A stretch of DNA of 20,976 bases from a virus (taxonomy: Duplodnaviria > Heunggongvirae > Uroviricota > Caudoviricetes), in the IMG/VR virus record IMGVR_UViG_2880378312_000001; one strand, 5' to 3'. The notes below the pieces were generated by a model. It saw only the letters and a list, made by a program, of their open reading frames with translations, ran no database searches and was not told the origin of the DNA. Positions 19,400 through 19,710 of the stretch are shown piece by piece; position 1 is the stretch's first letter, and each line of letters opens with the position of its first letter. Made by a program: the position numbers and the translations under genes.

Positions 19400-19648
19400 T
19401 TAGTGAACAAACCACTCGTCAGCAGACTTCCAGGTATCTTTCAGAGTCTCCTGAACAAAAGTTTTAGCTGAATCTTTATCGGCGGTGCGCGTAACAGAAA
19501 GGCCATCGTTGCTGGTGGCTTTTACGATCACCTCTACATCGTCATAACGTTTACTGATGCGTCGGGTTAATTCTTCCTTTAACGCATCCACAGCACCGTT
19601 TGGCATTTTAGTCATTTTTTCTTTGGCTATGCAGATCTCAATACGCAT
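19400..19648 (-). CDS. DinI-family protein (SOS-inducible RecA modulator homologue)
   Basis: 82 aa; conserved DinI positions MRIE..IAK...GA.DAL..EL.RRI...LSV...QET..W.SAD.WFV compared with E. coli DinI from memory; AGAGGGA RBS. Confidence 0.8.
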
Positions 19649-19661
19649 AAAAGTCCCTCTA

Positions 19662-19710
19662 TACTGTGTTTGTATACAGTATTATTTTTAACTGTACAAA
19701 TAAACAGTAT
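19662..19710 (-). promoter_or_regulatory. Two tandem LexA (SOS) boxes in the promoter of the DinI-family gene
   Basis: tACTGTgtttgtatACAGta (19662-19681) and aACTGTacaaataaACAGta (19690-19709), both CTGT-N8-ACAG, 14 and 42 bp upstream of the start codon; TTGATA -35-like hexamer just upstream on the coding strand. Confidence 0.7.

Follow-up and report, generated by a model that had tools for sequence, protein, structure and literature searches.

The window analysed here, a 20,976-bp stretch taken as a whole, carries on its minus strand a short gene for a DinI-like protein that we consider, with a probability of about 85%, to be an autonomous, SOS-controlled moron cassette, which encodes a RecA-binding paralogue of DinI and is uncoupled from the effector genes beside it. 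The feature is real, ordinary and already known: it belongs to a widespread, annotated class of prophage cargo with experimental precedent in its relatives, and this nature of the cassette had been left unrecognised in the initial annotation.

Genomic setting

E. coli O157:H7 chromosomes match the window at 100% identity and, on sequence grounds, the window is a degraded Sp17-type prophage at ssrA of E. coli O157:H7. Its phage genes include integrases, ninG, a Q-like antiterminator, a holin, tail-fibre fragments and a tail-fibre-assembly (tfa) pseudogene, accompanied by an IS30 fragment and IS66 tnpA/B; its effector genes are espW, espM2 and two of the DUF1076 (NleG-like) type; and at the host end ssrA and smpB follow the DinI-like gene. 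The Sp17 region has been described as two tandem prophages, highly degraded, non-inducible, and without repressor and antirepressor (PMC2669165). The dinI-like cassette forms the ssrA-proximal end of the prophage, and in the O157:H7 annotation a ‘DinI-like family protein’ gene is placed between the tfa pseudogene and ssrA. That an effector cluster is adjacent, as the initial annotation had it, is borne out: espM2 (18308–18898), convergent with the dinI-like gene, is followed away from it by a DUF1076/NleG-like gene (17475–18125) and espW (16338–17396).

An Rfam scan of 19000–20976 returned the tmRNA (ssrA; 19917–20279, minus strand) alone above threshold, and hits on the operator region (mir-19, a rimP leader and others) were at chance level (E 0.1–1). 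A full-length match to Rfam IS009 (RF02111) at 19013–19241 (plus strand), scoring 105.5 bits against a gathering score of 117 (E 9.5e-25), overlaps the tfa pseudogene region. In the same area, 18920–19068 (minus strand) shares 81–84% DNA identity with the region directly 3′ of the dinI terminator in L086 and in VT1-Sakai (H0002 area), and holds a truncated 39-aa ORF; a fragment of the tfa pseudogene (19132–19284, plus strand) separates this remnant from the dinI cassette, which suggests local rearrangement. Small ORFs downstream of the cassette (18885–19004, and the counterparts in L086 and L097) matched no Pfam family.

The DinI-like protein

The coding sequence (19400–19648, minus strand) starts with ATG and specifies 82 aa, corresponding to RefSeq WP_001217542.1, ‘DinI-like family protein’. 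Membership of the DinI family is clear: the protein matches the Pfam DinI profile (PF06183) over positions 1–63 of 63, with E 1.1e-18 and 67.7 bits against a cut-off of 24.2; it matches PHROG 189, ‘RecA filament binding protein DinI’ (E 2.4e-30), covering only positions 71–149 of that 151-position profile; and its alignment with E. coli DinI (1GHH/7YWA) spans both proteins from one end to the other, at 46% identity (E 2.9e-12 for 1GHH). Against the NCBIfam DinI equivalog model, NF007893, it scores 69.9 bits, below the 111-bit cut-off, and it is therefore classed as a phage-borne paralogue and not an orthologue of chromosomal dinI, with the same function as chromosomal DinI not guaranteed.

Cryo-EM of the DinI–RecA complex (7YWA) has defined the contacts through which DinI grips the L2 loop and groove of RecA: a pocket formed by L13, L21, W71, W77 and F78, and an acidic patch of E24, E69 and D76 (PMC9926225). 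In alignment, the pocket residues correspond to M15, L23, W73, W79 and F80 of the window protein, and the acidic residues to E26, D71 and E78, so that all eight determinants are kept, with one conservative Leu-to-Met change and two Asp/Glu swaps. As these RecA-contact residues are conserved, the window protein would be expected to bind the RecA–ssDNA filament.

One substitution adds uncertainty to this expectation. At codon 74 (19427–19429) the allele reads TWKSADEWF, whereas 81 of the 93 collected relatives have Glu at this position, in the sequence TWESAD(D/E)WF, as do all of the more distant homologues fetched (E. coli DinI, Gifsy-2, Klebsiella, Yersinia and Aeromonas). The change, E74K, corresponds to E72 of DinI and costs the acidic C-terminal helix one negative charge; the cryo-EM work (PMC9926225) does not count E72 among the residues that touch RecA.

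LexA operators and the predicted promoter

Two exact CTGT-N8-ACAG motifs lie upstream of the gene. The distal operator occupies 19690–19709 (20-mer AACTGTACAAATAAACAGTA; core 19692–19707; TACTGTTTATTTGTACAGTT in gene orientation), and the proximal operator 19662–19681 (20-mer TACTGTGTTTGTATACAGTA; core 19664–19679; listed as TACTGTATACAAACACAGTA), ending 13 nt before the ATG. Exact matches to this motif number three in the 20,976 bp, against 0.21 expected, and none of 100 shuffles reached three. The third match (5436–5451; 20-mer GACTGTAGAAATGAACAGTA, 5434–5453) was considered as an operator and rejected: it scores 10.6 bits, lies inside a 412-aa ORF (4262–5500) and probably arose by chance.

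Scoring with a LexA position weight matrix, which the initial annotation had named as a check to make, gave 22.8 bits for the proximal and 21.6 bits for the distal site. The symmetrised matrix was built from 13 operators, those of recA, lexA (two), uvrA/ssb, uvrB, uvrD, umuDC, sulA, recN (three), dinB and dinI, each of which was confirmed upstream of its gene in fetched K-12 or O157 sequence. Bona fide operators scored 12.6–24.6 bits when left out one at a time, and both sites score at the level of the recA, uvrB and recN-1 operators, as members of the LexA regulon do. The next-best LexA-like site anywhere in the window reached 11.4 bits, and among 200 Markov-1 random 21-kb sequences none reached the PWM threshold. 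Heterology index (HI)-like scores were 3.9–4.7 for the distal and 2.4–4.1 for the proximal site, to be set beside the Lewis criterion of HI < 15, and are approximate, the matrix differing from the original Lewis 1994 matrix.

A sigma-70 promoter scan places a predicted −35 element, TTGATA, at 19713–19708 (minus strand), and the scan and direct reading together place the predicted −10 within 19684–19690, as either TAAAAA with a 17-nt spacer or AAAAAT (19689–19684) with an 18-nt spacer; the −10 is a weak match. On these coordinates the distal box would take up the −35/−10 spacer, and the proximal box would follow immediately after the −10, over the predicted transcription start region. The promoter so predicted is the same one that is annotated for a paralogue in AP000400.1. 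A Shine–Dalgarno sequence, GAGGGA, was read directly at 19654–19659 (minus strand), 5 nt before the ATG. The central claim of the initial annotation, that two well-formed LexA sites overlap the predicted promoter of a DinI homologue, is thus upheld by the exact motifs, the Pfam match and the promoter scan; the span that it gave, 19400–19710, holds the ORF and both boxes, but its end coordinate clips 3 nt of the −35. The −35 is itself polymorphic: the window copy shares TTGATA with some of the relatives found at ssrA (L007, L015 and others), and most other copies have the consensus TTGACA.

The two boxes are 28 bp apart, centre to centre, or ~2.7 helical turns, and owing to this spacing cooperative LexA binding is not assured. 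The notion that one of the boxes serves a divergent promoter was rejected, as both are kept in dusA-adjacent relatives, where an integrase gene running in the same direction ends in the sequence upstream of the −35. Multiple boxes are also found at lexA and recN, both classic SOS genes. Double operators had been expected, in the initial annotation, to give tight repression and late induction: the former is a fair inference, but the latter is contested, a 2024 time-series study having found that operator strength tracks the amplitude of induction and not its time (PMC11002266), which makes delayed induction doubtful.

Transcript boundaries and insulation

Downstream of the stop codon, a conserved 3′ UTR (19334–19399, minus strand), which is part of the mobile cassette, leads into an intrinsic terminator of the dinI-like transcript (19287–19333, minus strand), composed of a hairpin at 19297–19333 followed by UUUUUCUUUUU. 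Its predicted folding energy is −19 kcal/mol (z −3.6), a stability that none of 200 shuffled sequences matched. On the other side, between the highly transcribed ssrA gene and the dinI promoter, a strong bidirectional hairpin with T-runs (19765–19797; minus strand −18.5 kcal/mol, plus strand −19.8 kcal/mol, z ~ −5) probably terminates ssrA transcription and insulates the cassette. This hairpin lies ~120 nt past the 3′ end of ssrA and is supplied by the prophage end; presumably it stands in for the native terminator of ssrA, which integration displaced, and keeps read-through away from the dinI promoter.

A tiny ORF, ATGAAAAAAACGGGGGGGTTGTTACCCTTAGTTACAAATTGA (translated as MKKTGGLLPLVTN up to its stop), runs divergently from dinI at 19725–19766 (plus strand) and enters this bidirectional terminator; a Shine–Dalgarno-like sequence, AAGGTGAG, stands 5 nt upstream of it. 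In the ssrA-context relatives L007, L015 and L016 a poly-G/C tract within it differs, with the frame seemingly kept when inspected by eye, and the ORF is probably fortuitous.

These boundaries bear on the proposal, made in the initial annotation, that the dinI-like gene links DNA damage to the effector island. The analysis gave the proposal no support: beyond the operators described above, no LexA-like site in the window exceeds 11.4 bits, strong terminators flank the cassette, espM2 is convergent with it, and the cassette moves independently of the effectors.

Proposed mechanism

In the undamaged cell, dimers of host LexA would occupy both operators, and RNA polymerase would be excluded, as the position of one operator between the −35 and −10, and of the other over the start region, implies. 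Upon DNA damage, activated RecA (RecA*) would stimulate LexA self-cleavage, both sites would clear and the gene would be transcribed; this derepression step, proposed here by analogy, has been demonstrated for the Gifsy dinI homologues and for chromosomal dinI. Judging from residue conservation, the product would then bind in the groove of the RecA–ssDNA filament and may stabilise filaments or temper their co-protease activity. With two strong operators that both need to be vacated, basal expression would be expected to be very low and the response steep, and the cassette would act alone, without transcriptional coupling to the neighbouring effector genes.

Conservation and mobility of the cassette

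The relatives collected comprise 84 close ones from IMG/VR and genomes, plus eleven annotated phage loci ranging from 99% to 40% protein identity; the IMG/VR scan and tblastn of named phages were the productive sources, and a protein search of genome contigs gave four loci. In essentially all relatives of the 82-aa subfamily with enough upstream sequence both boxes lie at the same positions, with 20-mers starting at −61/−62 and −33 from the ATG, and the two-box layout persists down to 58% protein identity (BP-4795). Conservation from −66 to the ATG extends across the IMG/VR, genome and named-phage relatives. Upstream of this, at least five unrelated contexts are found (ssrA, a dusA-adjacent integrase end, yehV and others), and homology therefore begins exactly at the −35 of the promoter. 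On the 3′ side the UTR is near-invariant across unrelated flanks, and alignment shows that homology stops right after the terminator.

Nucleotide diversity, computed over 47 distinct cassettes, was 0.008 at codon positions 1 and 2 and 0.100 at codon position 3, a ~12-fold difference family-wide. The arms of the LexA boxes ranged from 0 to 0.036 (proximal 0.0, distal 0.036) and the centres stood at 0.13 (proximal 0.134, distal 0.127); the first 66 nt of the 3′ UTR gave 0.062, and the sequence just outside the −35 gave 0.46. The low values for the protein and the operator arms indicate purifying selection on both, the operators being conserved beyond neutral expectation.

Taken from its sequence borders, the cassette is a discrete, mobile, moron-type unit of ~425 bp (19713 to ~19287, minus strand). 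It has the features by which morons are recognised, namely its own predicted promoter and terminator, a site at the prophage end, unrelated backbones around it and sharp borders of homology, and it recurs in ssrA, dusA-integrase, yehV, cdt and nleC neighbourhoods.

Of the competing explanations, the one that fares best, improbable as we consider it, is that of a decaying relic, in which the promoter and boxes would be intact merely through recent insertion and the E74K protein, in a dead prophage, would no longer be of use to the cell or to any phage. The prophage that carries it is in an advanced state of decay and cannot be induced (PMC2669165), with IS fragments and pseudogenes nearby, yet the ORF, Shine–Dalgarno sequence, both operators and the terminator have stayed intact amid broken phage genes. 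The −35 has weakened to TTGATA and residue 74 has departed from the Glu found in most close relatives and in all of the more distant homologues fetched, but E72 of DinI is not a listed RecA contact, and across hundreds of O157 genomes (300 records with ≥99% identity) the identical allele is fixed. Deletions of dinI in Gifsy prophages are phenotypically silent (PMC3121763), a result that belongs to another subfamily (see below), whereas the ~12-fold excess of diversity at third codon positions and the constraint on the box arms, both family-wide, speak against a relic.

Distribution and copy number

At megablast-level similarity the cassette (19400–19720) was found in 1,722 of 5,426 complete E. 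coli genomes, in 2,599 copies altogether, with up to six per genome and ~3 in the O157 genomes listed. Many lambdoid phages, Stx and Cdt phages included, have similar cassettes, as a rule beside cargo. The consequences of an autonomous SOS-controlled cassette are largely a matter of annotation and of bookkeeping for the SOS regulon of EHEC: each O157 genome has several additional strong LexA operators and DinI-like genes, which sit on prophages beside toxin and effector cargo, and if these paralogues modulate RecA*, they could influence the induction of Stx phages under antibiotics. A bolder version of this idea, which we regard as a long shot, is that the multiple dinI cassettes of EHEC, with their strong double operators, together deliver an SOS burst of DinI-like protein, or of a 3′ UTR-derived sRNA, which could alter the co-protease activity of RecA* and thereby the threshold or timing of Stx-phage induction and mutagenesis, with the dead Sp17 copy kept as a host-domesticated regulator.

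Relatives and precedents

The closest relatives are the dinI genes of E. coli phages (VT1-Sakai H0001, cdtI gp30, mEp460, Stx1a/2a/2c/2d-converting phages and BP-4795 ORF85), which belong to the same 82-aa subfamily at 58–99% identity, and share with the window copy both the prophage-end position beside cargo and the two-box promoter. In the VT1-Sakai record, GenBank AP000400.1, the paralogue H0001 has already been given a ‘putative promoter’ and, for LexA, a ‘putative SOS box’; the latter is the proximal one, and the distal box lies unlabelled inside the annotated promoter. In the Stx-phage alleles both boxes are weaker, at 12–16 bits (the distal one having CTGG, or the proximal one CCTGT), compared with ~22–24 bits each in the window copy, which has the strongest box pair among the relatives sampled; the window copy also differs from them in E74K, in its TTGATA −35 and in its location in a dead prophage at ssrA.

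Chromosomal DinI of K-12 (b1061) shares fold family and length with the window protein and is likewise LexA-controlled, but its gene has a single box, ACCTGTATAAATAACCAGTA, which overlaps the −10 at a distance of 19 nt from the ATG, in promoter DNA unrelated to that of the window cassette. Its SOS induction has been demonstrated in E. coli (PMC11002266). In one array study the CFT073-type dinI-like gene c0943 moved with SOS genes; the supplements of a Sakai mitomycin C array have no entry for the window dinI-like gene. A promoter with two operators emerges as a hallmark of the E. coli prophage-end subfamily, the Gifsy-type and chromosomal dinI genes having one box; this incremental point does not seem to have been made explicitly in the records or papers found.

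A further precedent comes from Klebsiella pneumoniae, in which binding of LexA at dinI has been shown by ChIP, and the LexA-controlled dinI transcript of the dinI–DinR locus has a 3′ UTR ending in an intrinsic terminator, an arrangement also predicted for the window gene. By extension, the main output of the cassette might be RNA, the 3′ UTR and terminator being released as an SOS-induced, Hfq-binding sRNA that acts in trans, as for Klebsiella dinI/DinR. Such an output appears very unlikely here. The UTR does form part of the mobile cassette, ends in a hairpin and U-run, and is less diverse than synonymous sites (0.062 vs 0.100), but this constraint is weak and could come from shared recent ancestry, whereas the protein is clearly under purifying selection. 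The pairing region of DinR is Klebsiella-specific, and there was no match to an Rfam family. A duplex test on long sequences, which is crude and speaks for a lack of evidence more than for disproof, gave no excess pairing with the E. coli ftsZ leader: the energy equalled the shuffled mean (p = 0.47), and of unrelated K-12 segments 76% did at least as well.

The dinI homologues of the Salmonella prophages Gifsy-1/2/3 are repressed directly by LexA and induced by mitomycin C or nalidixic acid (PMC3121763; PMC8072944). They have a single box, separated from the ATG by 19 nt, encode 75–77 aa at ~41% identity to the window protein, and lie in the nin region as the first gene of a dinI-gfoA/gftA-irsA antirepressor operon, in contrast to the window copy, which is monocistronic, has two boxes and stands at the prophage end. 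Non-polar deletions of dinI in this one-box subfamily had no significant effect on induction (PMC3121763); these are the only experimental data found that bear on the suggestion of the initial annotation that the gene may modulate the induction of co-resident prophages, which is conceivable in principle. Tum of coliphage 186 is under LexA control and has a DinI-like C-terminal half (PMC3121763), but it is a protein of 146 aa with an antirepressor half, and the window protein is a bare DinI domain. That the window gene is what remains of an induction module of the Gifsy type (dinI, antirepressor, irsA), with a LexA-controlled antirepressor triggering prophages in trans, can practically be discounted. 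In favour of it, Gifsy operons are LexA-controlled and headed by dinI, with antirepressors that act in trans on other prophages, and Tum fuses antirepressor and DinI domains (PMC3121763). Against it, there is no co-directional ORF from the stop (19400) to the terminator (19333–19287), the gene that comes next is convergent, the homology of relatives does not continue past the terminator, relatives in intact phages stand alone at the prophage end by tail-fibre or cargo genes and not in the nin region, and Gifsy dinI belongs to the distinct 75–77-aa, one-box subfamily.

Neighbouring cargo

The genes found next to the cassette vary, and include cdtABC (phage cdtI, L096), nleC (Stx1a/Stx2a phages, L098/L099), a gene for a putative avirulence protein (BP-4795, L102) and, in the window, espM2. 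The recurrence of virulence cargo among these neighbours suggests that the cargo slot at the prophage end is a shared moron hot spot. In many relatives, among them L039, L031, L059 and L023 of IMG/VR (~1342–2749), an integrase-like ORF of 365 aa adjoins host dusA and the cassette begins 62 nt beyond its stop codon; in these dusA-type relatives the integrase end is where the cassette lies, in phages whose tail-fibre genes are P2/Mu-like, and not the tail-fibre end of a lambdoid prophage.
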